Shown piece after piece: positions 36,573-54,109 of a stretch of DNA of 64,000 nucleotides. Within the stretch, counting starts at the first letter, position 1. Every line of letters starts with the position of its first letter. A program made the position numbers and the translations under genes. The notes below the pieces were generated by a model. It saw only the letters and a program-made list of their open reading frames with translations, was not told the origin of the DNA and made no database searches. This DNA is from a plasmid: sequence record OW967251.1; one strand, 5' to 3'.

Positions 36573-36579
36573 AGAGGCC

Positions 36580-36670
36580 TCCTTGTTAGGTCTACTATGG
36601 GCAGTAGGTATGAGAAGGTGAATGCTTCTCATACCTGCGAAACTCAAATTTTCACTTACTATTTGAAAAA
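36580..36670 (+). ncRNA. finP: Putative finP antisense RNA region in the traJ leader. This is positional only.
   Basis: FinO is present. F-like plasmids encode finP antisense to the traJ 5' UTR. No structure was verified here. Confidence 0.2.
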
Positions 36671-37213: not shown

Positions 37214-37560
37214 GATTAGAGTCCAGACTACACTCTAGAGTCTAGAGCATAAAGTATCTCATCAAAAGGGACTACACTCTAGAGTGCAATCCCAATTATC
37301 CATCTGATTTTATAGACGATAGTCGTTATCGACTCTAAAAAGACTCTATCCAGACTCTATTTAGAGTCTGGATAGAGTCTGTTTATACTTTCTAAATGAA
37401 AGAAACAGAAAGTTCACTCACATAAGCTCATAATTTAAAGGATAAATCTGCAAAATTTTAATTTTGCGTGGGGTGTGGTGATTTTGTGGTGAGGAGTGCA
37501 TATATGTTGAGTCTCGGTCTTGGATGGGTTAAGGTTATTCCGGGATTTGGCACGGAGGGG
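37214..37560 (+). other. oriT: oriT, the origin of transfer. It carries an F-type nic motif and putative TraM/TraY/IHF binding palindromes.
   Basis: TTGCGTGGGGTGT|GGTG at about 37461-37477 matches the F nic site. A perfect 19-2-19 inverted repeat AGACTCTATCCAGACTCTA..TAGAGTCTGGATAGAGTCT lies at about 37353-37392. Direct repeats GACTACACTCTAGAGT occur twice at about 37232-37285. The region lies between traM and gene X. Confidence 0.8.
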
Positions 37561-38083: not shown

Positions 38084-38416
38084 TTAAAAATCTACGGCAT
38101 CTATACCTGGATAATAATCGGCATCACTATCAAAATGAAAAAGCAGATACCCGCCCTCCCGGTGCATTAGTATGAGATTTTTGCGTAAAAATTTTGACAC
38201 CCCACCTCTTTTTAGCGCCAGAAGATGGCGTTTGAAATCATACATCCTTATAACACAACCATAAGGTGTATCATGTATCCACTCTAAGTAACTATCGCAA
38301 GTTAGATAATTGGTTGTTGATGAAAGCACCTGAAGAACTCTGATATCACCTTCTTCCATATGTGAAATACTGATACAGACAGCTTTAAATTCAAACATAA
38401 GTATTCCCACCATCAA
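38084..38416 (-). CDS. Hypothetical leading-region protein (110 aa).
   Basis: ORF downstream of the DUF932 gene. Confidence 0.4.
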   Translation of the reverse strand: MMVGILMFEFKAVCISISHMEEGDIRVLQVLSSTTNYLTCDSYLEWIHDTPYGCVIRMYDFKRHLLALKRGGVSKFLRKNLILMHREGGYLLFHFDSDADYYPGIDAVDF

Positions 38417-38445
38417 AACGCCGGACAGCTGCCCGGCGCTTATAA

Positions 38446-39267
38446 TTAGCCTTTAAGAGTGCGGAATTTCTCCGCAATTAACCACAATGCCTTATTGAGT
38501 TTAACATCACCATCGATTGCTTTTACTGGCCGGGTTGTTGTTCTTTTCCCTTTTTCAGTTCGGCCAGGCAAACCGCCTTTAATCAGATTTTCCTGGACCC
38601 TTTGATATGTAGTCCAGATGTCATCTTTTTTATCTTCATAACGGCGCGGATGAATTATCTGTTCAATACTGACCGGAGATTTATTTTCATCTTCATATCG
38701 GTAGGTTAATGCAGCTTGTCCAAACAGACGCTGTTCTTCCTTGGTTAAGGCAATAGACTTCATGACATCAACGCCTTCAGTTATTTTATCGAAAATTCCC
38801 AGAACTTCGTAAGCACCTTCGATAACCCTTCCCACAATATCACCTTTATGAGGTACACGAATCTCACCAAACGACGTACCGCACACAAGGCCATTTGTGC
38901 ATACAAAACGGAACATACCCGGGATCATTTGATAACTGGACGATCCATCATGCGAGTTAAGAAGAATGATTTCGGGTACTTCTGTTCCTTTATTGGCCCC
39001 TTCACGGCGAAGTCTTACCATATGCTTAGTATGCCCCCGTTTATCCTCATCCCTTACTCGTGACTGACAGGCAAAAAATGGCTGGAAACCTTCTTCACGT
39101 AATTTATCCAGCAGTGTAATGGTTGGAATATAGGTATAGCGATCACTACGTGAATTATGCTTTTCTTCTGAAAACACAGAAGGTACAACCTTGACTAATT
39201 CATCGTTAGTCAGTGGGCGTTCCTGACGAATGGAATGAGTAAGTCCAAATCGGGATGCTAAACGCAT
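38446..39267 (-). CDS. DUF932-family leading-region protein.
   Basis: Start at MRLASRFG, preceded by an AGGAG ribosome-binding site. The longer track ORF reads through into repeat copy A. It has the conserved DUF932-like core (HDGSSSYQ, FRFVCTNGLV). Confidence 0.7.
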   Translation of the reverse strand: MRLASRFGLTHSIRQERPLTNDELVKVVPSVFSEEKHNSRSDRYTYIPTITLLDKLREEGFQPFFACQSRVRDEDKRGHTKHMVRLRREGANKGTEVPEIILLNSHDGSSSYQMIPGMFRFVCTNGLVCGTSFGEIRVPHKGDIVGRVIEGAYEVLGIFDKITEGVDVMKSIALTKEEQRLFGQAALTYRYEDENKSPVSIEQIIHPRRYEDKKDDIWTTYQRVQENLIKGGLPGRTEKGKRTTTRPVKAIDGDVKLNKALWLIAEKFRTLKG

Positions 39268-39299
39268 TTTTTTCTCCTTAATTAGACCTGAATTTTTTA

Positions 39300-39960
39300 A
39301 ACCATCACCCGTTGAGTTGCCGGGGCCGCGGTTTTGACTTTGTGCGGGGACCTGCTGAACCTGCCCCTGGATATAACCTTCACCCGTTTGAGAGCCGTTC
39401 GCCGCAAGGGCGTAAACGAGCACAGCCCGGTGCAGATGTCCGGGGGTGAGCGGGAAATTTTTTTCGGCCTAATGAAGCGGCAGCGGAATGGCCGGGAAAA
39501 ATTTATTGCGAAAGGCCCTGCCGTCCCCTGGACAGCAAGACGGGTTGTGCTTGTCTCAGCCCCGGCGAATGGACTCAAACGGGTGATACGGGTACCAGGG
39601 GAAAGGAGCAGGCACCCGCCGCAACGACGGAACGCGCGGGCGCGAAACGGCGTTGCCCCGCAGAGTGCCGGCAGTCCTTCGCCGGCACGGTGAAAGCGGC
39701 GCGACCGGGACGGTCGCAGCAAGCGCTGCCGTTGACCTTGACGTCAGACATCAGACACTAGCCGTCAGGCCCGAAACCGCTTTGCGGGTTCGGCGGAGCT
39801 TACCGCGTCTTTTCGCGGTTAGCGGAGTGTGGCTCGACGACCGGACAGCGCAGCTGGCCGGGAGCCGAAGGTGTCCAGTATGGGTGTGCTTTTAAAGCCT
39901 TTAAGGGTTAAAAAGAGACATCACAGCAGAAAGAAGAAGAGAAAGCAGGAAGACAGGGGG
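39300..39960 (-). repeat. Structured GC-rich repeat, copy A. Putative Frpo/ssi-like single-strand DNA promoter.
   Basis: Copy A starts ACCATCACCCGTTGAGTTGCCGGGGCCGCGG and is near-identical to copies B, C and D. It lies directly 5' of a leading-region gene block. It has internal long-range complementarity (TCACCCGTTTGAG ... CTCAAACGGGTGA). Confidence 0.5.
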
Positions 39961-40086
39961 CAGCAAACAGGGAAAACGCGGAAAGGAAATACGGGCGGCG
40001 CGTGAGCGCGGCCCGGTTTTCCCGGCGACGCAGGCGCGCGGCCTTTTAGCGCAGTCGGGCAGGTGATCCCCTGCCCTTTCGGTTAT

Positions 40087-40920
40087 TTACGCGGCCTCCT
40101 GTATTCCGCGCAAAAAGTCCCGCATGGCCCTGAACCGGCGAAGATCTGCCAGTCGCTTTTCAAAGGCATTCAGGTAGTAAACCGGGGTATACCTCACCCG
40201 CCGGTACTGCATCGTGAGCGTGTTACCCGTCACCACTTCCGCCGCTATCCCCAGCAGTGACAGCTGGATGAAGGCCATATCTGCCGCTACCGGATCGATG
40301 TCAATGCAGCTGCCGAACATGTGCATTGAGGGGTTGATATCGGCTTCAAGCAGGCACTCTGCATAGGCGATCAGCATCCCGGCAGCCCCACACGCCGGAT
40401 CGCTGACTGTGGCAATCCCTTCCCGGCGGATAGTGTCTCTGACACCTGGCATTAGCATCCGCGCCATCAGACACTGCACTGAATACGGGGTAAAATACTG
40501 CCCGCGAAAATTATCGCCCAGCTCCAGCTCCATAAAAATAGCGCCGAGGAAATCATGAAATTTCGCCTCCAGCGCACACACCATCAGGCAGAACATTTCC
40601 TGCATGTTCGCGATGTCGGTGGCCCCGTACCGGGCGCAGATTTTCCGGCAGTTCTCCATGCTCTCCGGCGTTCGTATCCGGGCCATATCCAGCTCGCTGG
40701 CGGCAAGCGACAGAAAATCACTGAACACTTCCCAGCGCCCCAGATGGCGGCCCGTATCCTTAAATACGCGGATAAAACGGCTCCGGCTGTACTGCTCGCT
40801 CATCATACGCTGAACCGTGGGCACCATTTCCGCGATCTGCTGCCCTGCCTGAATGACAGGGCTGTTATCAGCGGCTTCTCTGGCCATATTGAACACATCG
40901 GCAAAACTCAGTTGTGACAT
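40087..40920 (-). CDS. Truncated N6-adenine methyltransferase-like protein (HsdM-like N-terminal half, with no catalytic NPPF/Y motif).
   Basis: Motifs YFTPYSVQCLMARML and DPACGAAGML (SAM motif I) are present, together with the ...DPVAADMAFIQLSLLGI region. The protein ends about 50 aa later with no NPPY/DPPY. Confidence 0.7.
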   Translation of the reverse strand: MSQLSFADVFNMAREAADNSPVIQAGQQIAEMVPTVQRMMSEQYSRSRFIRVFKDTGRHLGRWEVFSDFLSLAASELDMARIRTPESMENCRKICARYGATDIANMQEMFCLMVCALEAKFHDFLGAIFMELELGDNFRGQYFTPYSVQCLMARMLMPGVRDTIRREGIATVSDPACGAAGMLIAYAECLLEADINPSMHMFGSCIDIDPVAADMAFIQLSLLGIAAEVVTGNTLTMQYRRVRYTPVYYLNAFEKRLADLRRFRAMRDFLRGIQEAA

Positions 40921-41211
40921 GAAACATTCTCCGGTAATGCCGCCCCCTTCAGGGGGCGGCGTTTTTCACATCACGCGAGGCCGAGGCCAGCGTAAACCGC
41001 GGTCATGAACTGCTGCCAGTACTCCAGCTTTAAAGCGGGAACGCGGGCTCGCTGACCACTGCGAAGGGCATTTACAAACGCGTTCGCCTGTGCGACGATT
41101 TGCGGGTCGAAATTCATGGTTTAATCTCCATGTTTATTTTGTGTATGCCGGATGCAAACTTTTGCGGGTGTCACATCCGGCGTGGAATGAGCAGGCGAAA
41201 GCCTGCTTTTT

Positions 41212-41559
41212 TCATTTTTCGGTCAGGTTAAATCCCTCCTTAATGCGCGTTGTGATCTGCGCATGGCTCAGGTTACACACATCCCGCAGCCGGAAATATC
41301 TGGCTCCGTAGCGGGCATAGATCTCTGTCACGTCACCGCAAACCATCTCCTGCAGCATGAACGTTTCCCACTCGCCGTTCTCACTCGTTGACCAGTTGAG
41401 CGGATACATCAGGCCCAGCGCGTCATGGAATGTGTGAACGTCGATTTCTGAGGGGGCTTTTACCGCTGCTTTCTGCAGGCTCAACCAGTATTCGCGCTCT
41501 GCTTCTGCTGTAGCCAGCATTCCCGGATGGGCTGAGGATTCGGTGAGGAGTAAGTGCAT
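41212..41559 (-). CDS. Hypothetical leading-region protein (~115 aa).
   Basis: ORF. The start is chosen at MHLLLTES. Confidence 0.45.
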   Translation of the reverse strand: MHLLLTESSAHPGMLATAEAEREYWLSLQKAAVKAPSEIDVHTFHDALGLMYPLNWSTSENGEWETFMLQEMVCGDVTEIYARYGARYFRLRDVCNLSHAQITTRIKEGFNLTEK

Positions 41560-41615
41560 GGGGTTCTCCTTCAGGTTAAGGGTTGGCAGTACCAAACCGC
41601 CACCCGATTAGGTCA

Positions 41616-41969
41616 TCAGTAATCAGCTGCCAGCTCGCTCATAAGGTCGGCACATTCATCATGAGCACGTTCTTCTTCCGCCAGCGTCAGCATGTAACCC
41701 CGTTGAGCCGCCGCGCCAATGAATACCGGACGATCTTTCAGCGGCAGCTTTTCCAGGTAAATCATAGCCATACTCAACAGACGGGACGCATAAATCTCGT
41801 AGTACAAACCACACCCACGACTTGCCTGTTTTTCCATACGAGCCAGCACCACATCAGCGCGGATCACATCGAAAGGGTTACGGGAATGAATGTTGCGCAC
41901 AAAACAGTCAGTCCGGAGGGTTGTGCTTTCTTTGGTGGAGGGTTTTACGTTGACGTTTTGTATGCTCAT
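41616..41969 (-). CDS. Hypothetical leading-region protein (117 aa), the first gene after repeat copy B.
   Basis: Start at MSIQNVNV with a GGAG ribosome-binding site. The upstream extension of the track ORF lies within the repeat. Confidence 0.5.
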   Translation of the reverse strand: MSIQNVNVKPSTKESTTLRTDCFVRNIHSRNPFDVIRADVVLARMEKQASRGCGLYYEIYASRLLSMAMIYLEKLPLKDRPVFIGAAAQRGYMLTLAEEERAHDECADLMSELAADY

Positions 41970-42007
41970 CCTACTTTCTCCTCTGTCTGTTTTTCTGTCT
42001 TTTAAAA

Positions 42008-42560
42008 CCATCACCCGTTGAGTTGCCGGGGCCGCGGTTTTGACTTTGTGCGGGGACCTGCTGAACCTGCCCCCTGGATATAACCTTCACCCGTTTGAGA
42101 GCCGTTCGCCGCAAGGGCGTAAACGAGCACGGCCCGGTGCAGATGTCCGGGGGTGAGCGGGAAATTTTTTTCGGCCTAATGAAGCGGCAGCGGAATGGCC
42201 GGGGAAAATTTATTGCGAAAGGCCCTGCCGTCCCCTGGACAGCAAGACGGGTTGTGCTTGTCTCAGCCCCGGCGAATGGACTCAAACGGGTGATACGGGT
42301 ACCAGGGGAAAGGAGCAGGCACCCGCCGCAACGACGGAACGCGCGGGCGCGAAACGGCGTTGCCCCGCAGAGTGCCGGCAGCTTTATCGCCGGCACGGTG
42401 AAAGCGGCGCGACCGGGACGGTCGCAGCAAGCGCTGCCGTTGACCTTTCAGACATCAGACACTAGCCGTCAGGCCCGAAACCGCTTTGCGGGTTCGGCGG
42501 AGCTTACCGCGTCTTTTCGCGGTTAGCGGAGTGTGGCTCGACGACTGGCCAGCTTTGCTG
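42008..42560 (-). repeat. Structured GC-rich repeat, copy B (shorter tail). Putative Frpo/ssi-like element.
   Basis: Near-identical to copies A, C and D over about 550 bp. Confidence 0.5.
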
Positions 42561-42598
42561 GTCAGGAGCCGAAGGGGTCCAGTGTTGTTATGCCTTTC

Positions 42599-42949
42599 TT
42601 AACGTTCCAGGCGTTCGACGGTGGCCAGCAATTGCGGATAGGTCGCTGAGTAACACTTTTCGTACAGTGATTTAGCTGCGGGTATCCCTTCCAGATAATC
42701 ATCCGAGTCCCGAATTTCCTGAGCCAGATATTCAATAAAGGCGGGTTCCACAACGGAGCCACTCAGCACATTAAGCAGAACCTGTGTTTCGTCGTCATCG
42801 AGAGGAAGGGCACAGGCCCGAACCAGATGCGCATAGCGATCAAAGATATTATTCAGCCTTTCAGTCACCCCTTCCCTGTGGGAGTTCAGATGTGCTCGCA
42901 GCTTAGGCGAAGGCGTGAAAGAGGGGTTGCGGGAGATCTCTTTTTTCAC
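42599..42949 (-). CDS. Hypothetical leading-region protein (116 aa).
   Basis: ORF. Its end overlaps the upstream ORF by 4 nt. Confidence 0.5.
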   Translation of the reverse strand: MKKEISRNPSFTPSPKLRAHLNSHREGVTERLNNIFDRYAHLVRACALPLDDDETQVLLNVLSGSVVEPAFIEYLAQEIRDSDDYLEGIPAAKSLYEKCYSATYPQLLATVERLER

Positions 42950-43239
42950 TGGTTATCCTCAGAATACTGGCCCGACATCATTAAGAATTTGCGCCGCTCC
43001 CTCACGAACTGTCGATACCATTTACGGGCAACACTGGCCAGATCGTCCTCAGAAGCGTCACAGTACAGCGTACTGCCCATAAACCCTCCCCCACGGCAAA
43101 TCTGAGCACCTGTGTTACCAGAGTGTCCCGGGGACTCCAGGTGGACATAACCGCCACTCTCGGGTGCGTAAAAACTGAAAATTTCGCCGGTTTTACGGGA
43201 TTTTATCGTGAAGTTCATGCTGGCTCTCCTTTGGCTCAC
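42946..43239 (-). CDS. Hypothetical leading-region protein (97 aa).
   Basis: ORF. Confidence 0.45.
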   Translation of the reverse strand: MSQRRASMNFTIKSRKTGEIFSFYAPESGGYVHLESPGHSGNTGAQICRGGGFMGSTLYCDASEDDLASVARKWYRQFVRERRKFLMMSGQYSEDNQ

Positions 43240-43265
43240 CCGCGACTGCGCTTCGCCTCACTGAG

Positions 43266-43625
43266 TTAAGTGGAAAAATTGCTGTTCATTACACAATCAA
43301 CTGTATGACAGATGTCATACATAATCAACAAAAAAAAGCCGGCTAACAATTGCGTTGATTCAGTCACTCCGGCAACATCAATAATTAACATCCACATAGC
43401 TATGGCAAATAACTGGCATGCAATTATCCTTGCGTTCATCATAGAACCACCTAATAAAGACACTGTTGCGGCCATAGTTATAATCCACATTCCAGCAAAA
43501 GCAGCAAAAATAGCTGAAATGCTGAACCCCAAAAATGTAAACACTATCGATTCACGCACGGTAAGCCCGTAAAATCCATAAAGCACTAAAATCACACAAA
43601 TAAATACCACCATAAACTTCATCAT
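43266..43625 (-). CDS. Hypothetical polytopic membrane protein (119 aa).
   Basis: ORF that is hydrophobic throughout. Confidence 0.45.
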   Translation of the reverse strand: MMKFMVVFICVILVLYGFYGLTVRESIVFTFLGFSISAIFAAFAGMWIITMAATVSLLGGSMMNARIIACQLFAIAMWMLIIDVAGVTESTQLLAGFFLLIMYDICHTVDCVMNSNFST

Positions 43626-43735
43626 AATCCCTCGCTTTCCTTTAAAATCTGCACACCCAACTTATTTCAATCTAAATTCATTAATCCATTGCCGTTTGAT
43701 ACATAACCCTTAAATCTCGCTGAGTTTAATATCAT

Positions 43736-44062
43736 TTAACGGACTGTTTTACCGCTAAAATAATCAGGCCGAGCCTCCAGTTCTCTTTCGATGAGTTCAT
43801 CAGCAAACAGTGGGGCGGTACGATATACTCTTTTCGCCAGATTGCGTCGGCGAGCTGCAGCTTTTTGTTCTTCACTCCAGCGACGGATCGGCTTGTCCCC
43901 ACAAAAATCCAGGCACACAGCATACCCTGCCCCTGCCACCCACAAATCCATAACTGATGCTGGCGCTGGTTGTCCTTCCTCAACTTGTTCCGAAGCGAGC
44001 ACCTCCACTCCTGGACACGGAGAAGGTAACTTCCAGCGCAGCGAATAGCGCCATGTCATCAA
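43736..44062 (-). CDS. Hypothetical protein downstream of psiA (108 aa).
   Basis: ORF. It abuts psiA with 0 nt gap. Confidence 0.35.
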   Translation of the reverse strand: MMTWRYSLRWKLPSPCPGVEVLASEQVEEGQPAPASVMDLWVAGAGYAVCLDFCGDKPIRRWSEEQKAAARRRNLAKRVYRTAPLFADELIERELEARPDYFSGKTVR

Positions 44063-44785
44063 TTATCCTCTGCAGATAAGTTTGTTTGGTACCAGCCAGC
44101 GCTCCCTCTCAAGGATGGCCTCTTCCGATTCCTGAACGATGAAACGGATTTCATGCATAACCTCATACAAGGGGGCATGAGCACAAAGGAGCCAGCGAAG
44201 ATCCCTGAGAGATGTAAATCGCGTCTGCCAACGCCAGAAGGCCGGTTCAAGCTCACTCGCGTCAAACTCGTCGCTCCACCGGCGGTACCAGCTGTTAACC
44301 GTTTCCGGCGACTGGAAATTTAGCTCAGTGACAGCCTGCCCGAGCAAATTCTGGCGCAGTAGCCATGACTGTTCAACCTTCCGCGCTTCCCGCCGCATTT
44401 TGCGGGTGAATGCGATGTTCTGACGCTGAGTTCTCCGCTCTCCACGGGCGTGCCTCACCTCCGGGAACAGTTCAGACTGCACATCCTGCGACAATGGCAA
44501 AGGACAATACTCGCCATTGCTGGCAATCAATACATCCAGCGCTTCTTCCACCTGCTTCAGGTTTGAGAGTCGGTCCTTTGGATCACGATATAAGCCGGGA
44601 ATGCGTCGCGGCACTTCGTTGTTAATGCGGCCGCTGCCCGTCAGCAGGCGCAAAAAAGTTCGCACATGTGGCATCGATGGCAGACGAGCGCCGCGCTGGC
44701 GAGCATCTTCCACAGTCATGATGGCCTGCAGTGCAGCCTGTCGAGCAGGTTGCAGGGTAACAAGGGAACGGGATGAATGGATCAT
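44063..44785 (-). CDS. psiA: PsiA, plasmid SOS inhibition protein A.
   Basis: 240 aa, immediately downstream of psiB with a 4-nt overlap. Size and synteny match F psiA (239 aa). Confidence 0.8.
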   Translation of the reverse strand: MIHSSRSLVTLQPARQAALQAIMTVEDARQRGARLPSMPHVRTFLRLLTGSGRINNEVPRRIPGLYRDPKDRLSNLKQVEEALDVLIASNGEYCPLPLSQDVQSELFPEVRHARGERRTQRQNIAFTRKMRREARKVEQSWLLRQNLLGQAVTELNFQSPETVNSWYRRWSDEFDASELEPAFWRWQTRFTSLRDLRWLLCAHAPLYEVMHEIRFIVQESEEAILERERWLVPNKLICRG

Positions 44786-45213
44786 TGTTCGCCCTCCTGT
44801 TTCAGGGTGTTGATGATGCTGGCAAATGAATATCCGTCCTCATCGAGGCGCGCGATAAGGGACAGCGCATGGTTAATCCGTTCCGGGTTATATCTGGCCA
44901 TCGAGCAAACGACAGAGAAAGGCTGGCCTCCACGGGTAATAAAGACGATTATCCACACAGGACTGAGATCACCCGGACTGCATACTGCTACATCGAAATG
45001 GTCATGAGACGGGCTAAACCGGAGCTGGACAGGAAAGAACCCCCCAAATTCGGCCCGGTATTCCGCATTTACTGCCCAGCCATCCGGTACCGTTAAATCG
45101 CGCATGACTGCATGGCTCAGTTCACGACGAAAATCCTCACCGGCGTTACGATAGTCTTCCAGTTCTTCGGTAGACATGGTTTTCAGAACATCAAGATTCA
45201 GCACAGTTTTCAT
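44782..45213 (-). CDS. psiB: PsiB, plasmid SOS inhibition protein B (a RecA inhibitor).
   Basis: Starts MKTVLNLDVL and contains GGFFPVQLRFSPSHDHFDVAVCSPGD, which closely matches F PsiB. Confidence 0.9.
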   Translation of the reverse strand: MKTVLNLDVLKTMSTEELEDYRNAGEDFRRELSHAVMRDLTVPDGWAVNAEYRAEFGGFFPVQLRFSPSHDHFDVAVCSPGDLSPVWIIVFITRGGQPFSVVCSMARYNPERINHALSLIARLDEDGYSFASIINTLKQEGEQ

Positions 45214-45258
45214 AGTATTGTCTCCCTGCTGCCGCCCCTGACGGGGCGGCTCTGGTTA

Positions 45259-47268
45259 TCAGGCGGCGCAAGCCGTGTTGTCTTCGTTATCAGCATCGGT
45301 ATCGGGCGTCGTTGTCGAACCCGATTTTTTCGTATCCCGTGGCTGCATCCAGCCTGGTACCCAGCGGGTGTCTGACAGAGAACGCTCTGCAAGGATCGCC
45401 GCATCTCCCTTTTTCAGCTTCGCCGCTTCGACGGCGACTGAATCCAGCCCAGCTTCCTGTAACGCCTCCACTATCTGGTTTTTACTGAGCAGGCCGAGGA
45501 AGTTTTCAGCAGTGGGCTGCCACCAGTCACGCAAATTGAATCCGATCGCCGTCTCCACCTCATCAAGGTTGCTACGGCTGGTATGCCCATGCTCACGGGT
45601 CTGAACCCCATCAACGGAACAGGCCGTGCAGAACGCCATCAGAGCCATCAAGGTCTGACCGTCCAGTGTGAAAAATGTGGAAAAGTCCTTCTTCCAGCCT
45701 TGCGGTAACAGGCCTTCAAGACGGTTTTTCTCCTGCATAAGAGTTTGCCACGCCAGACCGTCTTTTCCGGTCGGGGCTTCGCTGACCAACCCACTGTGAT
45801 GAACATCCATCCGCATTACAAAGGGGTGACGGGTGGTAAGGCAGTATTCAAATACGCAGGAGCACAGCCGCCAGACCATCAGGGCCACTGCTTTCTGTGG
45901 CTGTTGTACCAGGGCAGCCTGAACAGCCAGTGTGCGTTCGGAAGACATTTTTTTGAGTAAGGGCAGACTGATCCCTTCTGCGGCATCCGGCTCTTTACGG
46001 TCGATCACATGCAGATCACGGCTGGTCGCCTGCGTAGCGGCATCCGCCTCCCCGGGCGTTTTAACCTTCTTCTGAATCCCGCGCAAAATGCAAAGCTCAC
46101 CATTATGAAGACAGGCTACTACGCCACAGCTTGCCTTCTGTTCGTCAGTCCATTGACGGTGTGCCGCCTGACTTTCTATTTCGTCGATCAGAACCTGAAT
46201 AGCGGCTTCATCCTCGTAGGTTTCCGTTGCCGCCTGTGTAGCGTACAACTCGTCGAGTCGTTGCTGTTCGTCCGGTGTGTACTGCGGTTCTGGCACAGGA
46301 AGCAGAAGGTAATTTTCACGATCTTCACCATAGTTCTGCAGTGGGTTTTCCCGCCCTATTGACCATGACCAGTCTTCGTTCAGTTCAATTGCCAGTGCAG
46401 CAGTCTCCAGTTTTTCCATAACCAGACGGTCTACGAGCACGCGATCTGCAGTACCGTCATTCTCCTCCTGGCTAAATAAATCTTCACGAACCACACCACC
46501 TGCTGCTTCGTAGGTTTCTCGACCAATGAAGACAAAGCGAGGATGTGTAACGGAAATTTCCGTTTCTGTAATTACCCGCTTGATGAGATGTGCCGAAACC
46601 GTGCTGTAAGCAGCTTTCACCTGTTCATATACCTGCACCTGACGCGCCTGATCACTTTCCAGACTCAGTGCCTGGCACTGCTCCACATCAAGGGTATTGT
46701 TTGCCAGCAGTTCGAGGATTTCCGGGGCGAGATGAGCCAATTTCAGCATGCGCTGAACGTGGCGACTTCCATACCCCAACTGGTCACCAATCTGCGCCGG
46801 GCTTTTCCCTTGTTCGGAGAGTTTGCGGAATCCGGCAATTTGTTCTGCCGGATGCATGGCCACACGCTGGTTGTTTTCCACCATTGAGGCCACAACCGCG
46901 AGTTCGTCACTAACCCGCTTAACGATCACCTGATACCCGGCATCGATGCGGTTTTCAGTGAGTAATAACTGCAGGGCTGCAAGACGCCGACCACCTGCAG
47001 CCACCCCTGACATACCTTCCGGGAGAGTATGCACAACCAGATTCTGAATCAGACCAATGGTCTCAATGGATTCAGCCAGTTCCCGGACACTCTCAACCGG
47101 GTACGGGATAGTGCGAACGTTCAGTGGCGATTTAATCAGCGCAGACAGCGGCACCAGTTCAATCTGTGCTGCTTCAAGCGCCTCTTTCAGAGCCGCTGCT
47201 TCGGCAGGTTTGACGTTTTTTTTGCTGGTTTTGACAGATGTTTTTGCTTTAGACTCGGTCACGGACAT
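45259..47268 (-). CDS. ParB-like nuclease domain protein (669 aa; the large leading-region ParB homologue, orf652-like).
   Basis: The N-terminal ParB/Srx fold motifs (IPYPVESVRELAESIETIGLIQNLVV, GGRRLAAL) are present. It lies in an operon with ssb and psiB. Confidence 0.8.
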   Translation of the reverse strand: MSVTESKAKTSVKTSKKNVKPAEAAALKEALEAAQIELVPLSALIKSPLNVRTIPYPVESVRELAESIETIGLIQNLVVHTLPEGMSGVAAGGRRLAALQLLLTENRIDAGYQVIVKRVSDELAVVASMVENNQRVAMHPAEQIAGFRKLSEQGKSPAQIGDQLGYGSRHVQRMLKLAHLAPEILELLANNTLDVEQCQALSLESDQARQVQVYEQVKAAYSTVSAHLIKRVITETEISVTHPRFVFIGRETYEAAGGVVREDLFSQEENDGTADRVLVDRLVMEKLETAALAIELNEDWSWSIGRENPLQNYGEDRENYLLLPVPEPQYTPDEQQRLDELYATQAATETYEDEAAIQVLIDEIESQAAHRQWTDEQKASCGVVACLHNGELCILRGIQKKVKTPGEADAATQATSRDLHVIDRKEPDAAEGISLPLLKKMSSERTLAVQAALVQQPQKAVALMVWRLCSCVFEYCLTTRHPFVMRMDVHHSGLVSEAPTGKDGLAWQTLMQEKNRLEGLLPQGWKKDFSTFFTLDGQTLMALMAFCTACSVDGVQTREHGHTSRSNLDEVETAIGFNLRDWWQPTAENFLGLLSKNQIVEALQEAGLDSVAVEAAKLKKGDAAILAERSLSDTRWVPGWMQPRDTKKSGSTTTPDTDADNEDNTACAA

Positions 47269-47336
47269 AATTGATACCTCACTGGATTAATGATTGTCTG
47301 CCGGGTAGTCCCCCTACCCGGCGCCTTCTTACTTCA

Positions 47337-47579
47337 TTACTTCGTTTTACGGATGCCATAGAATTCGATGTAGCGGTTGAGCCAGTAGGCGGCCCCTTTT
47401 TCAAAATTCCACCCCCGCCAAATCATTTCACCGTCTCGACGAACAACCAGCCGGAAATGTGTACCCTGATCGTCTTCAATGGTGACATTCTGAAACTGTT
47501 CTGCCACCGCTGTGGCTTGTTCGCGTGTGAACGAGCCATCGGCGAGGCACTTAAGTAATGTGTTCGTGTTGTCTGTCAT
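47337..47579 (-). CDS. Hypothetical protein (80 aa) between ssb and the parB-like gene.
   Basis: ORF. Confidence 0.45.
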
Positions 47580-47626
47580 GGTTTTTCTCCTGTAAAAGCC
47601 CCTGCATCAGAGGCTTTTCTGCGTCA

Positions 47627-48139
47627 TCAAAAGGGGATCTCATCGTCAAAATCGTGACCCGGATCAGGCTGCGAAGGTGGTTGCTGCGGAGCAGTGTTAG
47701 ATTTTTTACCTGCAGCCTTACCTTTCCCTTTCGCTGCACCGGAGGTGGCAGGAGGTGGCGTTTGCGGATCAGATTGAGGCTGACTTTCACGGCGGCCGCC
47801 CAGCATCTGCATGGTGCCCCCAACGTTAACCACAACTTCTGTAACGTACTTCTCCAGACCAGATTGATCAGTCCACTTGCGGCTACGTAACTGACCTTCG
47901 ATATAGACCTGAGCACCTTTACGCAGATATTCCCCGGCCACTTCGGCCAGTTTTCCAAACACAACAACACGGTGCCATTCAGTGTTTTCGCGCATTTGTC
48001 CATCCTGTTTGTCACGCCATGTTTCTGACGTGGCCAGGGTGAAATTAGCCACTGCGCCACCGGAAGGCAGATAACGAACTTCGGGATCTTGTCCGAGATA
48101 ACCGACAAGAATGACTTTATTGACGCCACGTGTTGCCAT
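47627..48139 (-). CDS. ssb: Plasmid single-stranded DNA-binding protein.
   Basis: Starts [43 protein letters not shown] and has the acidic tail DFDDEIPF. The start is at MATRGV, and the boundary may be off by 1-2 nt. The longer track ORF is a read-through into repeat copy C. Confidence 0.92.
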
Positions 48140-48175
48140 AATGAATCTCCTTAATCTGTTGTTTTGCCTTTTAAA

Positions 48176-48840
48176 ACCATCACCCGTTGAGTTGCCGGGG
48201 CCGCGGTTTTGACTTTGTGCGGGGACCTGCTGAACCTGCCCCCTGGATATAACCTTCACCCGTTTGAGAGCCGTTCGCCGCAAGGGCGTAAACGAGCACG
48301 GCCCGGTGCAGATGTCCGGGGGTGAGCGGGAAATTTTTTTCGGCCTAATGAAGCGGCAGCGGAATGGCCGGGAAAAATTTATTGCGAAAGGCCCTGCCGT
48401 CCCCTGGACAGCAAGACGGGTTGTGCTTGTCTCAGCCCCGGCGAATGGACTCAAACGGGTGATACGGGTACCAGGGGAAAGGAGCAGGCACCCGCCGCAA
48501 CGACGAAGAGCGCGGGCGCGAAACGGCGTTGCCCCGCAGAGTGCCGGCAGTCCTTCGCCGGCACGGTGAAAGCGGCGCGACCGGGACGGTCGCAGCAAGC
48601 GCTGCCGTTGACCTTGACTTCAGACATCAGACACTAGCCGTCAGGCCCGAAACCGCTTGCGGGTTCGGCGGAGCTTACCGCGTCTTTTCGCGGTTAGCGG
48701 AGTGTGGCTCGACGACCGGACAGCGCAGCTGGCCGGGAGCCGAAGGTGTCCAGTATGGGTGTGCTTTTAAAGCCTTTAAGGGTTAAAAAGAGACATCACA
48801 GCAGAAAGAAGAAGAGAAAGCAGACAGACAGCAGGCAGCA
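48176..48840 (-). repeat. Structured GC-rich repeat, copy C, directly upstream of ssb. Putative Frpo-like single-strand promoter.
   Basis: Near-identical to copies A, B and D. In F, Frpo lies upstream of ssb. Confidence 0.55.
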
Positions 48841-48969
48841 AACAGGGAAGACGCGGAAAGGAAATGCGGGCGGCGCGTCAGCGCGGCCCGGTTTTCCCGG
48901 CGCCGCAGGCGCGCGGTCTTTCGAGGCGCGGCCAGACGGGGACAGGTGCCCCGCCGGCTTAACGTGTCA

Positions 48970-49533
48970 TCAGACGGTTATTCTGAGAATGGCGGTCGCT
49001 ACCTGGGTATACGTGAATGTTCCCCGCGGCAACGGCTCCCAGACGTCCGCCAGGGACTCCAGCGCCTTTTGCTGACGCGGCCCGTCCAGACATATGCCCG
49101 TCAGAATCCCGCCAGGCTCAAGCAGAGTTAATGCCCGCCGGATATGCCGGATATCATCACCGCGATTAAACGGCGGATTCATGATAATTCGGGTATACCG
49201 GCGCTCCGGATGATATTCGAGAAAATCTCCGCACCAGATCCGGACCTCCGGGAAATGCGCCTGCAGGTGACGGGCTAACCCGGCGTGCAGCTCCACGGCG
49301 TCACACTTCGCCCGGGGGACTGCATCCCTGATCGCCTGCAGTATGGCGCCCGTTCCGGCACTGGGTTCCAGAATGCGATCGGTTTCCCGGACATCAGCCA
49401 GCTCAACCAGCCGGCGACATTCCGGGGAGGGGGTGACAAAAAGTTGCGAGCTACCCTGAATTTCAGCGACAGGGGCGCGCCCTTCCAGTTTGTCCCGCAT
49501 CGCCTGAATACGGTGTTTAAGGTCATGATGCAT
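48970..49533 (-). CDS. Small SAM-dependent methyltransferase (N6-adenine/N4-cytosine type).
   Basis: Motif I (EPSAGTGAIL) and the catalytic NPPF motif are present. About 187 aa from MHHDLKH. Confidence 0.75.
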   Translation of the reverse strand: MHHDLKHRIQAMRDKLEGRAPVAEIQGSSQLFVTPSPECRRLVELADVRETDRILEPSAGTGAILQAIRDAVPRAKCDAVELHAGLARHLQAHFPEVRIWCGDFLEYHPERRYTRIIMNPPFNRGDDIRHIRRALTLLEPGGILTGICLDGPRQQKALESLADVWEPLPRGTFTYTQVATAILRITV

Positions 49534-49580
49534 GAATGTACTCCCTGACCTCCCCGGCAAGATGCCGGGGAGCCTTCCTG

Positions 49581-50936
49581 TTATTTTTTCGGAATTTCAA
49601 CGGTTTTCATGTCTGTGATATACACATTCACGAGCGTACAACCGTGCGTCATGCACCGGCGGAAGCGATAGGCGCCGTGTGTTTCGGTTTCTGCAGCACC
49701 CCGCACGCCTTTATAATCAGCGGGTAATTTCGCCCACTCGGCTTTTGTCATTTCCCGGAACCCTTCCCCCGGATAATTGACGATCGGTGGGCGCTTCGCC
49801 GCTTTCTTCGCGTTGCTGGCTTCCTCCGCTGTCGGGGCTTTGTAGTCCGTGATACGGTCGGGCGTGAGTTTCATCGTGCCGCTGTAGCCCAGAAAGCGAT
49901 AACCGGGCGTTTCGACTGAACTCACCTCCCCCTTACTCCGGTTAACCCGGAGAATGGTTAACCATTCTCCCCGACTCAGTACCTGCCCGCCTGGTTCAAA
50001 TTCCTGTGTTCGGGTGACAACGCCACCGTTTTCATTGAGCATCGCGCGTTCGTAGGCCAGGCGGTTCTGGTAATGATTCACCCAGCGCTGTTGGTGGTTA
50101 ATCGTGCGCTCATGACAGCGGATCGCAATATCACGCGCCTGTTCAAAAGTAATGATCTCCTCAGACAGGGCAGAATGGAGAGACATCGAGCCCTCATACT
50201 GGCTTTTCTCTGCCGGGCGGGGGTATTTGTCGAGCGTGAAGCAGGCATGAATATGATCATAATTACTGACCAGTAACGCCATTTTCAGATCGAGCGTCTG
50301 CGCACGCCACATCGTCATATACTTTTCAGACCGGGCAATGTGCTTTTGGGACTTGCGTAATTCCGCCTCGATTTTTTTGATACGGCGGTAACGCACATCC
50401 GGACGCTCCTTGTATTTCGCGTGCCGCAGAGAGGCCTGCGCGCGCTGTTCCCAGTATTCGGCGCGCTCGAACAGCATCACCGCACGTTTCATGCCGTTCT
50501 CAATTTTCTGCGCATGCCGGCGCGCGCGGCGCTCGCTGTGGTGGCCTACCAGGATCGGCTGTCCCAGCGGGACAGCCGATGCCAGCGAATCAACATGCGC
50601 AAGCGCCTGCTCCGATTCAACCGCCCGCCGGTCACTGTAGTCACTGAACCGCCCGGCGCGCTGCTCCTGGCGATCAAACAGGGTGCTGTCCTCGTCCTCG
50701 ATATCACCGGCGAGGGAAAGCAGGACATCCTCCCGCCCCGGCGTCCAGGCTGGCGCCACAAAAAGTTCCTGTTTGGGCGCCCAGCGAAAGCCTGCTTTGT
50801 TGATCAGGGAATACGTTTCTTCATCGAGCCGTAATGATGCGTAAAGTCGCAATTTATTATCATCGGGTGAATAGGTTGCCCGGTAAGTCTGGCCTGCGGT
50901 GTTTTCCGTCATGATCTGTGCGGTAGTCGGTGCCAT
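49581..50936 (-). CDS. Conserved hypothetical leading-region protein (451 aa).
   Basis: Long clean ORF with a basic, coiled-coil-rich middle section. No family is assignable by eye. Confidence 0.55.
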   Translation of the reverse strand: MAPTTAQIMTENTAGQTYRATYSPDDNKLRLYASLRLDEETYSLINKAGFRWAPKQELFVAPAWTPGREDVLLSLAGDIEDEDSTLFDRQEQRAGRFSDYSDRRAVESEQALAHVDSLASAVPLGQPILVGHHSERRARRHAQKIENGMKRAVMLFERAEYWEQRAQASLRHAKYKERPDVRYRRIKKIEAELRKSQKHIARSEKYMTMWRAQTLDLKMALLVSNYDHIHACFTLDKYPRPAEKSQYEGSMSLHSALSEEIITFEQARDIAIRCHERTINHQQRWVNHYQNRLAYERAMLNENGGVVTRTQEFEPGGQVLSRGEWLTILRVNRSKGEVSSVETPGYRFLGYSGTMKLTPDRITDYKAPTAEEASNAKKAAKRPPIVNYPGEGFREMTKAEWAKLPADYKGVRGAAETETHGAYRFRRCMTHGCTLVNVYITDMKTVEIPKK

Positions 50937-50987
50937 TGTGTTTTCTCCTTCCTGCAGTTGCCGCCCCTCGCGGGGCGGCTCACCTCA

Positions 50988-51218
50988 TCAGTTAAATGCG
51001 CGTTTCAGTTCCAGCGTGCGGAGTACCTGCCCGAGGGCGGTATTTTTCATCGCGGGGATGTGGACACCGCGCCCTTTGCGGTGACTTCTGGCGATATGAC
51101 GCCCGAAAGCTCTGAGAGCGGGATCAATCTCCGGTGCGGTGATATCTGCGCGCAGAATGCGCGAATGACGACGGGGCTTTACAGCGCCTGCGGAAGGTGA
51201 AAAAATAGAAACGATCAT
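50988..51218 (-). CDS. Hypothetical (76 aa).
   Basis: ORF. Confidence 0.35.
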   Translation of the reverse strand: MIVSIFSPSAGAVKPRRHSRILRADITAPEIDPALRAFGRHIARSHRKGRGVHIPAMKNTALGQVLRTLELKRAFN

Positions 51219-51309
51219 AGAGTTGACTCCTTATGGTAGTTAACGAAGCCGGAAAAACCGTTCGTGCGATTTTTACGGCGTGGGAGAAGCAGGGTTTACC
51301 CTGCTTTTT

Positions 51310-51537
51310 TCATATCTGCGGTTTGCTTCCCGCTTCTTCTTCCTCCTTCTTAAGCTGATCGGTAATGTCTTCCGGTTCGCCCAGAAGCCAGCCTTTGACG
51401 GGTTCACAGCGTTCAATAAACGCTTTTATCGCCCGTTTTCCGGTCGTGGCCTGCACCCGGGTAAACATCGGCAGATTGCCGCTGGCATTGCTTCCCAGAA
51501 ATGCGATCCGATACGTTCGCAATGAAGGATCCTGCAT
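51310..51537 (-). CDS. Hypothetical (75 aa), the first gene after repeat copy D.
   Basis: ORF. Confidence 0.4.
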   Translation of the reverse strand: MQDPSLRTYRIAFLGSNASGNLPMFTRVQATTGKRAIKAFIERCEPVKGWLLGEPEDITDQLKKEEEEAGSKPQI

Positions 51538-51564
51538 TTTTCTTTTTCCTGATTTTTAAAGAAC

Positions 51565-52200
51565 ATCACCCGTTGAGTTGCCGGGGCCGCGGTTTTGACT
51601 TTGTGCGGGGACCTGCTGAACCTGCCCCCTGGATATAACCTTCACCCGTTTGAGAGCCGTTCGCCGCAAGGGCGTAAACGAGCACGGCCCGGTGCAGATG
51701 TCCGGGGGTGAGCGGGAAATTTTTTTCGGCCTAATGAAGCGGCAGCGGAATGGCCGGGAAAAATTTATTGCGAAAGGCCCTGCCGTCCCCTGGACAGCAA
51801 GACGGGTTGTGCTTGTCTCAGCCCCGGCGAATGGACTCAAACGGGTGATACGGGTACCAGGGGAAAGGAGCAGGCACCCGCCGCAACGACGGAACGCGCG
51901 GGCGCGAAACGGCGTTGCCCCGCAGAGTGCCGGCAGTCCTTCGCCGGCACGGTGAAAGCGGCGCGACCGGGACGGTCGCAGCAAGCGCTGCCGTTGACCC
52001 TGACGTCAGACATCAGACACTAGCCGCCAGGCCCGAAACCGCGTAGCGGGTTCGGCGGAGCTTACCGCGTCTTTTCGCGGTTAGCGGAGTGTGGCTCGAC
52101 GACCGGACAGCGCAGCTGGCCGGGAGCCGAAGGTGTCCAGTATGGGTGTGCTTTTAAAGCCTTTAAGGGTTAAAAAGAGACATCACAGCAGGAAGAAGAA
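51565..52200 (-). repeat. Structured GC-rich repeat, copy D. Putative Frpo/ssi-like element.
   Basis: Near-identical to copies A, B and C. Confidence 0.5.
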
Positions 52201-52320
52201 GAGAAAGCAGACAGACAGCAGGGAGCAAGCCGGAAACGTAAAGATGCAGGCTGGAGAGAATATGTTTTTCATGCCGCCGGAAAGAAGCCATGATAAACCG
52301 GCGGCATACCAGACGGGGCG

Positions 52321-53163: not shown

Positions 53164-53589
53164 TCAGTCCAGAGCCGCGTAAATAGCAGCGCATTCGTCA
53201 TGAGAGTCAATGAAATTCCACAGCTGCGATTCCCGCAGCATCAGGTGGCGTGTCAGGGCAGCATCACCGCGTTCATGGTGCAGCCAGATACGGCGGTTGA
53301 TCGCCAGCGCCGTAATGATAACTCCGGCCGCATCCGCGCTGACGGACCGATCAAACCAGTTATCCGGGTTAGTCAGATGGAAACGGTCACCGTCAGGCAT
53401 CATGTAGCCGCCGCCCTCCGGAATACGGATGAAATGCCAGAAGCCTCCGCAGTAATCGGTGATGTGTTTCTCAGCGAGCGCATAGACCTGCATCTCTCCG
53501 GCCAGAAAATCGTTACCAAACAGATCCGGCAGGAACGAGAGACGGTCGGACTCCTCTACATTCAGCATGGTTTGACGGGCATGATACAT
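53164..53589 (-). CDS. klcA: KlcA/ArdB-family anti-restriction protein.
   Basis: The motifs SADAAGVIITALAIN and AAIYAALD match RK2 KlcA (SADAAGIVATLFALG, AAIYRAID). The start is at MYHARQ, preceded by a GGAGG ribosome-binding site. Confidence 0.82.
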   Translation of the reverse strand: MYHARQTMLNVEESDRLSFLPDLFGNDFLAGEMQVYALAEKHITDYCGGFWHFIRIPEGGGYMMPDGDRFHLTNPDNWFDRSVSADAAGVIITALAINRRIWLHHERGDAALTRHLMLRESQLWNFIDSHDECAAIYAALD

Positions 53590-53627
53590 AGCAACCTCCA
53601 CAGGTTCATAAGATTGCGGCACCGGGT

Positions 53628-53850
53628 TGTGCCGTGCCGACACGACAGCCCGGCGGAAAGCGGAAGATGCAAGGGCGACACCGGAGGCCGCAGCGCAGAT
53701 AAAGCACGAAGCTGGTCTGGACGGTTTTAGAGCGAAACCTGAGCGAGAAAACGACGGGAAGAACGGCGAGCTTCATAAAAAAACTGCGACCGGGCGAGGA
53801 TGGCGGCGCCAGCGAACCCTTGCATCTGCAGCGGCCGGGCTAAAGTGAAG
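53628..53850 (-). promoter_or_regulatory. Long imperfect hairpin upstream of klcA. Candidate single-strand promoter of a different sequence family.
   Basis: GTGCCGTGCC at about 53630 is complementary to GGCACGGCAC at about 53845. AGATGCAAGGG is complementary to CCCTTGCATCT. AGCCCGGCGG is complementary to GCGGCCGGGCT. Together these form an imperfect stem about 220 nt long. Confidence 0.3.
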
Positions 53851-54109
53851 GCACGGCACTACCCGAAGCGATGCAGGAGATACAACATGAGGTCCCCTGT
53901 CGCGGTTTACGAGCGCAGGGAGAAAAGCAGAAGCTGGCATCGCGACGCGATGGCTGCGTATAAAGGCCGCAGACCGGAGGGAGGGGGCCGGACAAAGCGG
54001 AGCCAGCGGCAAAGACAAGCCGGCGACGTCCTTATCCGGTGTTGATGGCATGGCGCCAGTTTATCAGCTGCCCGTCACCAGGCGGCCCGGGAGACCTCTC
54101 GTTCTGAGC

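Follow-up and report, generated by a model that had tools for sequence, protein, structure and literature searches.

The window, the whole 64-kb stretch of plasmid DNA that was analysed, belongs to an IncFII(K) Klebsiella plasmid of the pKpQIL type, and the repeat described here matches pKpQIL-IT at 100%. A repeat search of the window recovered four direct repeats of 605–761 bp each within the leading region (Table 1). Four near-identical structured repeats had been proposed in the initial annotation, and direct-repeat families were found at the places it named; its positions held, whereas its lengths (about 560–650 bp) fell short of the true copies, which are somewhat longer. A 300-nt core (39364–39663, 42071–42370, 48240–48539 and 51626–51925) is 99–100% identical among the copies, which also have flanking blocks in common, and pairwise comparisons of the hairpin-forming module A (340/341 nt) gave 336–340 of 341 positions equal (98.5–99.7% identity). 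Start-to-start spacing of the copies is 2707, 6169 and 3386 bp, and with such unequal intervals the four copies are therefore not periodic, contrary to what had been suggested.

As had been claimed, each copy lies directly 5' of the first gene of a minus-strand block, with first start codons at 39267 (DUF932), 41969 (117-aa ORF), 48139 (ssb) and 51537 (75-aa ORF). The distance from hairpin base to start codon is 44–57 nt in all four copies, with Shine-Dalgarno sequences in between, and the four copies mark operon boundaries. The gene strand of the four intergenic regions contained no canonical duplex sigma-70 promoter. The expected spurious N-terminal ORF extensions into the repeats were also seen, with a six-frame ORF at 38446–39423 against the annotated gene at 38446–39267, and a second at 47627–48598 against the annotated ssb at 47627–48139.

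Table 1 Coordinates of the leading-region repeats, their modules and the adjoining gene blocks in the window
Feature	Position	Strand	Remarks
oriT nic-site motif, TTTGCGTGGGGTGT/GGTG	37463–37480	+	predicted nick 37476/37477
Gene block behind copy 1	38084–39267	-	DUF932, DUF5983
Repeat copy 1	39287–40046	+	760 bp; 5' of DUF932 and DUF5983
Module A hairpin, copy 1	39321–39660	+	F ssiD/Frpo homologue; apex ~39478–39483
Apical A/T-rich stem and 12-nt bulge	39483–39528	+	AAATTTTTTTCGGCC pairs with GGCCGGGAAAAATTT
Promoter-like boxes, copy 1, 3' arm	39529–39559	+	-35/-10 roles putative, from sequence
-35-like TGGACA	39529–39534	+	5/6 match to TTGACA
Extended -10-like TGTG	39546–39549	+	
Putative weak -10, TTGTCT	39551–39556	+	2/6 match to TATAAT; last two bases unpaired
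Module B, two small GC-rich hairpins	39665–39717	+	
Module C	39745–40046	+	copies 1, 3 and 4 only; three more hairpins, then a ~95-nt tract
Gene block behind copy 2	40087–41969	-	117-aa ORF, two small ORFs (115-aa ORF, 48-aa ORF), N6 DNA methylase
Repeat copy 2	41993–42597	+	605 bp; distal module truncated
Module A hairpin, copy 2	42027–42367	+	
Gene block behind copy 3	42599–48139	-	ssb, DUF905, ParB-like gene, psiB, psiA, four small ORFs
Repeat copy 3	48162–48921	+	760 bp; 5' of the ssb block
Module A hairpin, copy 3	48196–48536	+	
Gene block behind copy 4	48970–51537	-	75-aa ORF, 76-aa ORF, DUF3560, methyltransferase
Repeat copy 4	51548–52308	+	761 bp; distal end diverged; 5' of the 75-aa ORF block
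Module A hairpin, copy 4	51582–51922	+	

The oriT of this plasmid carries an F-type nic motif on the plus strand, and it is therefore this strand that is transferred and that templates the minus-strand genes. The nick was placed within the motif according to the established F TraI site, and the position of nic puts the leading region at higher coordinates. The same 18-mer occurs in F on the strand opposite the F leading genes, so the geometry is the same as in F, in mirror image. This agrees with the earlier proposal that the plus strand is the T-strand, enters leading region first and serves as template for the minus-sense genes. The association with leading genes extended to other genomes, where the first downstream ORF in the same orientation was homologous to a leading-region protein of the window at 32 of the 52 pattern matches (ssb 14, DUF905 9, DUF932 3, 117-aa ORF 3, others 3).

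Folded as single-stranded DNA, the plus strand at 39287–39760 reached -132 kcal/mol (z -8.4), which none of 100 shuffled sequences equalled, and its 340-nt core formed a long imperfect hairpin (minimum free energy -104 kcal/mol) with the architecture of F Frpo1, F Frpo2 and ColIb-P9 ssi. The inverted repeats quoted in the initial annotation were recovered in this analysis, with TCACCCGTTTGAGAGCCGTTCGCCG paired to CGGCGAATGGACTCAAACGGGTGA in the minimum-energy fold and the small hairpins GTGCCGGCAG...CGCCGGCAC and GCGACCG-GGA-CGGTCGC present at 39665–39688 and 39701–39717, respectively. Across 29 non-redundant homologs from other Enterobacterales, the 61 consensus pairs were 96.7% paired, compared to 35–50% in slid controls, and compensatory changes occurred at 12 pairs; none of 500 shuffles did as well. 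In every one of these homologs the T-strand orientation was the more stable, with a mean advantage of 14.6 kcal/mol over its complement. The paired positions held 125 G.T wobble cells and 8 A.C cells, a count with some built-in bias, since the consensus structure was itself a prediction for this strand. Folding the plus strand had been suggested as a check, and it returned a long imperfect hairpin like that of F Frpo, supported by both covariation and strand asymmetry.

All four copies matched F ssiD (D90178), Frpo1 and Frpo2 by blastn (67–68% identity over 360–376 nt, E 1e-18 to 1e-30), and when aligned they stayed colinear with F Frpo1 and Frpo2 over ~550 nt. Homology to Frpo1, which is ssiD, and to Frpo2 covers the whole 340-nt hairpin plus ~200 nt beyond it, in line with the Frpo-type promoters proposed in the initial annotation. 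In the suggested comparison with ssiE, F ssiE (D90180) gave no blastn match to the repeats at E 1e-4 and is unrelated. Frpo1 and Frpo2 also go by the names ssp1a and ssp1b and are class 1 single-stranded DNA (ssDNA) promoters, and by their sequence all four repeats are assigned to class 1. The F elements likewise lie in the leading region, 5' of ssb and a DUF932 gene and in the same orientation to nic, but F has two copies where pKpQIL has four, and ygeA intervenes before DUF932 in F, whereas copy 1 directly precedes it in pKpQIL. Near-identical elements have been published from another host plasmid: Frpo' 1–3 of Serratia marcescens (CP047692.1) share 97–99% identity over 365–397 nt and are the same element, Frpo' 3 corresponding to copy 4 including its 5' flank (99.2%). 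These appear as candidates selected by hexamer and structure criteria in Supplementary file 4 of Samuel et al. (Nature 2024), and the present identification is therefore a correct rediscovery rather than a new system.

The search for hairpin-embedded -35 and -10 elements gave a mixed outcome, with conserved TGGACA, TGTG and TTGTCT boxes on the 3' arm that are only partly canonical. These are putative -35, extended -10 and -10 elements, and no canonical hexamer pair passed a consensus scan. An identical box-bearing 31-mer is present in the other copies (42236–42266, 48405–48435 and 51791–51821), and among the 29 homologs TGGACA was conserved in 22 and TGTG in all, the last T of the hexamer being invariant. 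The 3' arm of F Frpo has boxes in common with these, as TGGAC(A/T), TGTG and (C/T)TGTCT/TGTAT, although the distance from -35-like box to hexamer is 16 nt in pKpQIL and 20 nt in F. For copy 1, transcription is predicted to start opposite template bases ~39402–39404, and transcript 5' ends of copies 1 to 4 are predicted near 39400, 42107, 48276 and 51662, respectively. The apical A/T stem is placed where an UP element would be expected, upstream of the -35-like box. This apex, which we call K-type, is ~20 nt longer than that of F, and in place of the F bulge (CATTTA/CATTTC) it has a ATTGCGAAAGGC bulge.

Beyond module A, the two hairpins of module B also adjoin F Frpo1, F Frpo2 and the Salmonella Frpo* candidates, and they fall outside the 328-nt ssiD minimal element. 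The distal module C of pKpQIL differs from F; its tract at 39900–39995 is rich in purines on the transferred strand, and 80% of its bases are pyrimidines when read in mRNA sense. A terminator-like site was observed at 40057–40076 on the plus strand. Rfam 15 at the gathering threshold returned no family on the repeats; matches elsewhere in the window were FinP, AS-traG, AS-pc01 and a group II intron.

More distant relatives have parallel features. The ssi1–3 elements of ColIb-P9/pESBL, which are IncI1 class 1 ssDNA promoters, have the same apical architecture, an A/T stem with a 3'-arm bulge and a GTCCGGGG/CCCCTGGAC stem followed by TGTGG, with a weak hexamer set 17 nt beyond TGGAC, and they too occur as multiple dispersed copies before ssb/psiB and anti-restriction genes. 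ColIb-P9 ssi and the repeats have only this apical architecture in common, however: there was no BLAST match at E 1e-6, the lower stem is unrelated, and where ColIb-P9 (like F) has a CATTTA-type apex bulge, pKpQIL has a 12-nt bulge of another kind. Class 2 (ssp2/'Frpo3', 5' of ardB/klcA) and class 3 (5' of M.EcoGIX) elements follow the same principle in the same region, but show no sequence relationship to the four repeats. A probable class 2 ssDNA promoter element was observed in the window at 53616–53865. Folded ssDNA is also recognised by an RNA polymerase at the single-strand origins (sso) of rolling-circle plasmids and at phage N4 hairpin promoters, neither of which is known to be homologous to the repeats; sso are known only to prime DNA synthesis, and phage N4 relies on a virion polymerase of its own.

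The sequence-level tests that could be run (homology, fold, geometry and the absence of any IS or MITE sign) agree with the interpretation in the initial annotation, and the repeats are very probably class 1 (Frpo/ssi-type) ssDNA promoters of this pKpQIL-type IncFII(K) plasmid. During conjugation the plus strand would be nicked at oriT (~37476/37477) and pass into the recipient starting at the strand's 5' end, leading region foremost. As each repeat arrived as ssDNA, its 340-nt core would fold into the long imperfect hairpin, the upper part of which would restore a duplex promoter, with the A/T apical stem (UP-like), TGGACA, TGTG and TTGTCT running outward along the 3' arm and the weak -10 hexamer at the edge of an internal loop. 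Host sigma-70 RNA polymerase would bind the hairpin with the 5' arm as template, then leave the hairpin base into the adjacent genes using the transferred strand as template. Leading-region proteins, among them DUF932, methylases, Ssb and PsiB/PsiA, would in this way be produced in a burst ahead of any complementary strand, whose synthesis would then flatten the hairpins and silence the promoters. On the model of F, the transcripts may have a second role as primers for this synthesis. Polymerase recognition, ssDNA-specific transcription, its timing and the priming role are extrapolated here from F, ColIb-P9 and pESBL. In F, deletion of Frpo1 or Frpo2 abolished early expression (PMC9849209), in pESBL 5'RACE located starts for class 1–3 promoters (Wen et al. 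2025, PMC12672017), and a Frpo-driven anti-CRISPR was effective only on the leading T-strand (PMC11541004).

An unlikely but mechanistically close alternative is that the hairpins are mainly single-strand initiation signals, at which RNA polymerase makes a short primer RNA for extension by DNA polymerase, so that they would be complementary-strand origins and not gene promoters. It was through its single-strand initiation activity that F Frpo originally came to light, under the name ssiD; the copies are homologous to ssiD, recent F work supports priming in vivo, and four dispersed copies would supply four priming points. The two roles are nonetheless not exclusive and are one and the same molecular event. 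A pure priming signal would not need to stand, at every copy, 44–57 nt ahead of a start codon that has its ribosome-binding site, or to keep the same orientation 5' of leading genes elsewhere. The loss of early protein production upon Frpo deletion in F also argues against priming alone.

It is less probable still that the repeats act as RNA or as duplex DNA, whether as structured 5' leaders or, in the established plasmid, by terminating transcription or insulating one operon from the next. Their location between operons would suit such a role, as would the hairpins of the distal module and its ~95-nt tract, which is C/T-rich in mRNA sense and could load Rho, and the single terminator-like site, although that lies on the plus strand. 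The fold, however, favours the plus DNA strand over the mRNA-sense strand in 29/29 homologs, with G.T far above A.C, whereas an RNA leader would be the complementary sequence; no Rfam family matched, and the homologous F element works as ssDNA according to the literature. Least credible of all is an origin as non-autonomous, MITE-like mobile elements or recombination scars spread in the plasmid. The copies are 98.5–99.7% identical within the plasmid yet only 68% identical to F, which indicates recent duplication or gene conversion, and PLSDB matches carried 2 to 7 copies per record. On the other side, there was no transposase and no match to a mobile-element RNA or DNA family, the initial annotation having named an IS or MITE match as grounds for the mobile-repeat explanation, and all copies share one orientation before leading-region genes, in other genera too. 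On orientation and placement, a MITE- or IS-derived repeat is very improbable, given four direct repeats each before a leading-gene block and 32/52 matches elsewhere before leading-region homologues. The covarying structure and conserved boxes point to selection acting on the sequence itself, and 2994 of the 3860 PLSDB records carrying the repeats (~78%) were typed as conjugative.

Beyond the class 1 assignment, we tentatively raise a more speculative set of proposals, which we consider doubtful as a whole: that the K-type is a distinct class 1 subclass, that its flanking modules are functional, that there are five zygotic operons and that the copies are gene-converted. The marks of such a subclass would be a longer A/T apex and a bulge of another kind, always accompanied by the conserved module B hairpins and the purine-rich T-strand tract. 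The flanking modules might then boost the promoter by offering SSB a landing pad, insulate the operons by loading Rho or form a replication roadblock of the F ssp2 kind. The four copies, together with the class 2 element, would split the ~16-kb leading region into five operons, each induced zygotically, and the four class 1 copies would owe their continued near-identity to gene conversion. Overall, the four repeats are very likely the Klebsiella-plasmid versions of the known F "Frpo" hairpin promoters, which allow a conjugative plasmid to express the genes that enter first before its DNA has become double-stranded.

A repeat search of the window recovered the four direct copies that the initial annotation had described in the leading region, each ahead of the first gene of a minus-strand block, with 44-57 nt and a Shine-Dalgarno sequence between the end of the core, a 340/341-nt hairpin (39321-39660 in copy 1), and the start codon. 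The cores agree pairwise at 336-340/341 positions (98.5-99.7% identity, versus only ~68% to F), which suggests that gene conversion or recent duplication has acted in the plasmid lineage. The proposed periodicity was not borne out, since the copies are spaced at 2707, 6169 and 3386 bp and are located at operon boundaries. Six-frame ORFs reaching into the repeats exceed the annotated gene lengths, in keeping with the suspicion that their N-terminal extensions are spurious, and protein-coding ORFs within the repeats were rejected because indels among homologs at the apex have lengths not divisible by three and because ORFs on the two strands overlap.

Coordinates of the repeats, candidate promoter boxes and other features of the window
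Feature	Position (strand)	Remarks
Copy 1	39287-40046	DUF932 start codon 39267
Copy 2	41993-42597	117-aa ORF start codon 41969; without distal 160 bp
Copy 3	48162-48921	ssb start codon 48139
Copy 4	51548-52308	75-aa ORF start codon 51537; distal end diverged
-35-like box, copy 1	39529-39534	TGGACA; 3' arm, apex to base
Extended -10-like box, copy 1	39546-49	TGTG; 11 nt past TGGACA
-10-like hexamer, copy 1	39551-56	TTGTCT; single C between TGTG and hexamer
Module B	39665-39717	also in copies 2-4
Distal tract	39900-39995, 48775-48870, 52162-52230	in F (L002) 8960-9065, 14335-14470
Fifth structured element	53616-53865	intergenic region 53590-54109
Antirestriction KlcA/ArdB-like gene	53164-53589 (-)	
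TraI recognition/nick sequence	37463-37480 (+)	
Group II intron	54574-56391 (-)	Rfam D1-D4 match 56166-56391 (186.6 bits)
ltrA reverse transcriptase/maturase ORF	54574-56061	
AS-pc01 antisense RNA (Rfam)	51213-51309 (+)	between both small ORFs of copy-4 block
AS-traG (Rfam)	15846-15931 (+)	
FinP (Rfam)	36566-36644 (+)	
Tandem-repeat array	60262-61112	

Over the repeat region the window matches pKpQIL-IT and many other Klebsiella IncFII(K)/IncFIB plasmids at 100% identity, and 3,860 PLSDB records, the majority typed conjugative, match at 12,125 places (2 to 7 per record). Based on the annotation of pKpQIL-IT and pBIC-1a, the gene map runs from the tra genes, traM and oriT to an SLT transglycosylase gene (+), followed on the minus strand by DUF5983, DUF932, an N6 methylase, small ORFs, psiA, psiB, a ParB-like gene, DUF905 and ssb and, after ssb, by a methyltransferase, DUF3560, small ORFs, a HolE-like gene and an antirestriction gene. 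The group II intron sits beside umuDC at the outer limit of the leading region, a site where pKpQIL-IT has no intron. The tandem-repeat array, seen as multiple offset BLAST matches, resembles F sequence just downstream of sopB and appears similar to sopC centromere repeats. Another pKpQIL record, NZ_MT809699 (109.6 kb), begins at ssb and carries two copies only; this probably reflects collapse of the repeat during assembly, and the record was therefore left out as evidence for recombination.

The four copies were aligned with the reverse-complemented F sequences that precede ygeA (Frpo1) and ssb (Frpo2) in the leading region and proved colinear with these single-stranded DNA promoters over ~550 nt. 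In accordance with this, blastn against the sequences in Supplementary file 4 of Samuel et al. 2024 matched F ssiD, Frpo1 and Frpo2 at 67-68% identity over 360-376 nt (E 1e-18 to 1e-30), as the initial annotation had anticipated, whilst the comparison with F ssiE, which it had also proposed, gave no similarity. Far closer matches (97-99%) were obtained to Frpo' 1-3 of Serratia marcescens CP047692.1, with Frpo' 3 matching copy 4 including its flank, and the same element has thus been published before as a Frpo-like candidate, with 7,751 Frpo' matches reported across leading regions (Samuel et al. 2024). By sequence, the copies are members of the known Frpo family, and the comparison with F confirms the published candidate family as truly homologous to F Frpo. 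Our literature search found no paper treating these elements in pKpQIL itself.

Folded as DNA, the + strand at 39287-39760 reached -132 kcal/mol (z -8.4), and the 340-nt core alone formed one long imperfect hairpin of ~-104 kcal/mol in all four copies. F Frpo1, Frpo2 and three ColIb-P9 ssi elements fold like the copies and share their apical plan, in which an A/T-rich stem is followed by a 3'-arm bulge and then the stem GTCCGGGG/CCCCTGGAC; for the ColIb-P9 elements, which gave no BLAST match to the repeats, the likeness is one of apical architecture only. Scanning one genome per species with a conserved lower-stem 30-mer yielded 47 loci, mainly on Enterobacterales plasmid contigs. Exact matches were also recorded on short contigs assigned to Streptomyces, Catenulispora and Brachybacterium (L011, L014, L015, L019, L022 and L045) and on several Firmicutes/Bacteroidota MAG contigs, most likely through enterobacterial plasmid contamination or mis-binning. 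Across an alignment of 29 non-redundant homologs, the consensus hairpin comprised 61 pairs, was 96.7% paired and had changed on both sides at 12 pairs; none of 500 column shuffles equalled the observed values, and pairing fell to 35-50% in a partner-sliding control. Three apex variants were distinguished: the K-type of the window, an F-type and a short type lacking the A/T stem.

This fold is oriented. Consensus pairs included 125 G.T cells versus 8 A.C cells, a count carrying some bias since the + strand served for structure prediction, and in an energy comparison free of that bias the given orientation was more stable than its complement in 29/29 homologs, by a mean of 14.6 kcal/mol. Together, these asymmetries indicate a fold tuned for the + DNA strand rather than for the complementary strand or the mRNA, which carries sequence complementary to the transferred strand. 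The window has a single occurrence of the F TraI recognition/nick sequence TTTGCGTGGGGTGT|GGTG, on the + strand, and in F this sequence and the leading genes lie on opposite strands. During F transfer the nicked strand exits 5' first from the nick, so that the leading T-strand corresponds to the + strand at higher coordinates, which provides the minus-sense genes with their template, as originally deduced, and each putative promoter enters the recipient just after the genes it would serve.

A mobile repeat had been raised as the alternative to a promoter. The repeats have no Rfam match at gathering thresholds, and in other genomes 32 of 52 pattern matches were followed, in the same orientation, by a first downstream ORF homologous to a leading-region protein of the window (ssb 14, DUF905 9, DUF932 3, 117-aa ORF 3, 115-aa ORF 2 and ParB-like gene 1), a context that argues against mobility. 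The Frpo/ssi-type promoter reading, by comparison, is supported by every available sequence-level test, with homology, the conserved + strand fold, nick geometry and gene context in agreement.

A consensus sigma-70 scan of the repeat-bearing intergenic regions detected no canonical hexamer pair, with the regional count at chance (11 found versus 11.8 expected). Within the 3' arm, TGGACA, TGTG and TTGTCT may serve as -35, extended -10 and -10 elements, respectively. The 31-mer bearing these boxes is identical in the four copies; TGGACA is present in 22/29 homologs and TGGACG in four, and TGTG and the final T of the hexamer are invariant. The T of TGGACA is constant while its pairing partner varies (G, A or T), which suggests that it is read as sequence. 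Masai and Arai reportedly found in 1997 that the -10 region must contain mismatches, in agreement with the location of the last two bases of TTGTCT in an internal loop, and the A/T-rich apical stem occupies the expected position of an UP element. Transcription is predicted to start ~7 nt past the hexamer, opposite template bases ~39402-39404, giving a leader of ~136 nt; in copies 2-4 the minus-strand starts would fall near 42109-42111, 48278-48280 and 51664-51666, respectively. An assignment of TTGCGA as -35 and TGGACA as -10 was dropped because TTG is not conserved (TCGCGA in L017 and L039), because TGGACA matches TTGACA at 5/6 positions and lies at the correct distance from the A/T-rich apex for a -35, and because the Frpo2 fragment of Samuel et al. 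stops right after TGTATC.

Module B directly adjoins the 3' side of the main hairpin in the T-strand and forms two small GC-rich hairpins that fall outside the 328-nt ssiD minimal element. They are conserved beside F Frpo1 and Frpo2 and beside Salmonella Frpo* 5-7 (80-89% identity); the Salmonella main hairpins differ. Farther out, a distal tract of ~70-135 nt is ~75-80% pyrimidine when read as mRNA and rich in purines on the T-strand; in F, an upstream tract of like composition but without sequence similarity to it accompanies both Frpo elements. Module B and the distal part, module C (39745-40046; copies 1, 3 and 4), may have some role, and the distal tract might either load Rho for the preceding operon or offer SSB an unstructured stretch to bind. 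A fifth structured element, upstream of the KlcA/ArdB-like gene, forms a long hairpin on the + strand (-115.7 kcal/mol for the 521-nt region versus -103.4 for its complement), matches the F region upstream of ardB/yfgB (68% identity, E 1e-13) and resembles the insect 'Frpo* 1' of Samuel et al.; it is probably a class 2 (ssp2/'Frpo3') single-stranded DNA promoter.

Function has been examined in relatives of these elements. In F, the proteins encoded downstream are no longer made early once Frpo1 or Frpo2 is deleted (PMC9849209). pESBL shows induction of six leading operons, with 5'RACE starts falling in class 1, 2 and 3 hairpins (PMC12672017), and an anti-CRISPR gene driven by Frpo confers protection on F only if it lies on the leading T-strand (PMC11541004). 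Priming of complementary-strand synthesis appears to be a further role of Frpo/ssp1 transcripts (bioRxiv 10.64898/2026.01.09.698686).

The scientific addition made here is small, confirming Frpo' homology and supplying covariation, strand-asymmetry evidence and a concrete start prediction. Its practical value lies in annotation, as the element occurs in >3,800 PLSDB plasmids, usually unannotated or under spurious ORFs, and its length (600-760 bp) and near-identical copies can collapse short-read assemblies. Plasmids of the pKpQIL type spread KPC carbapenemases in Klebsiella. Ultimately, the hairpins would be expected to drive a burst of Ssb, PsiB, methylases and anti-restriction proteins, on which establishment of these plasmids in a new host probably depends.
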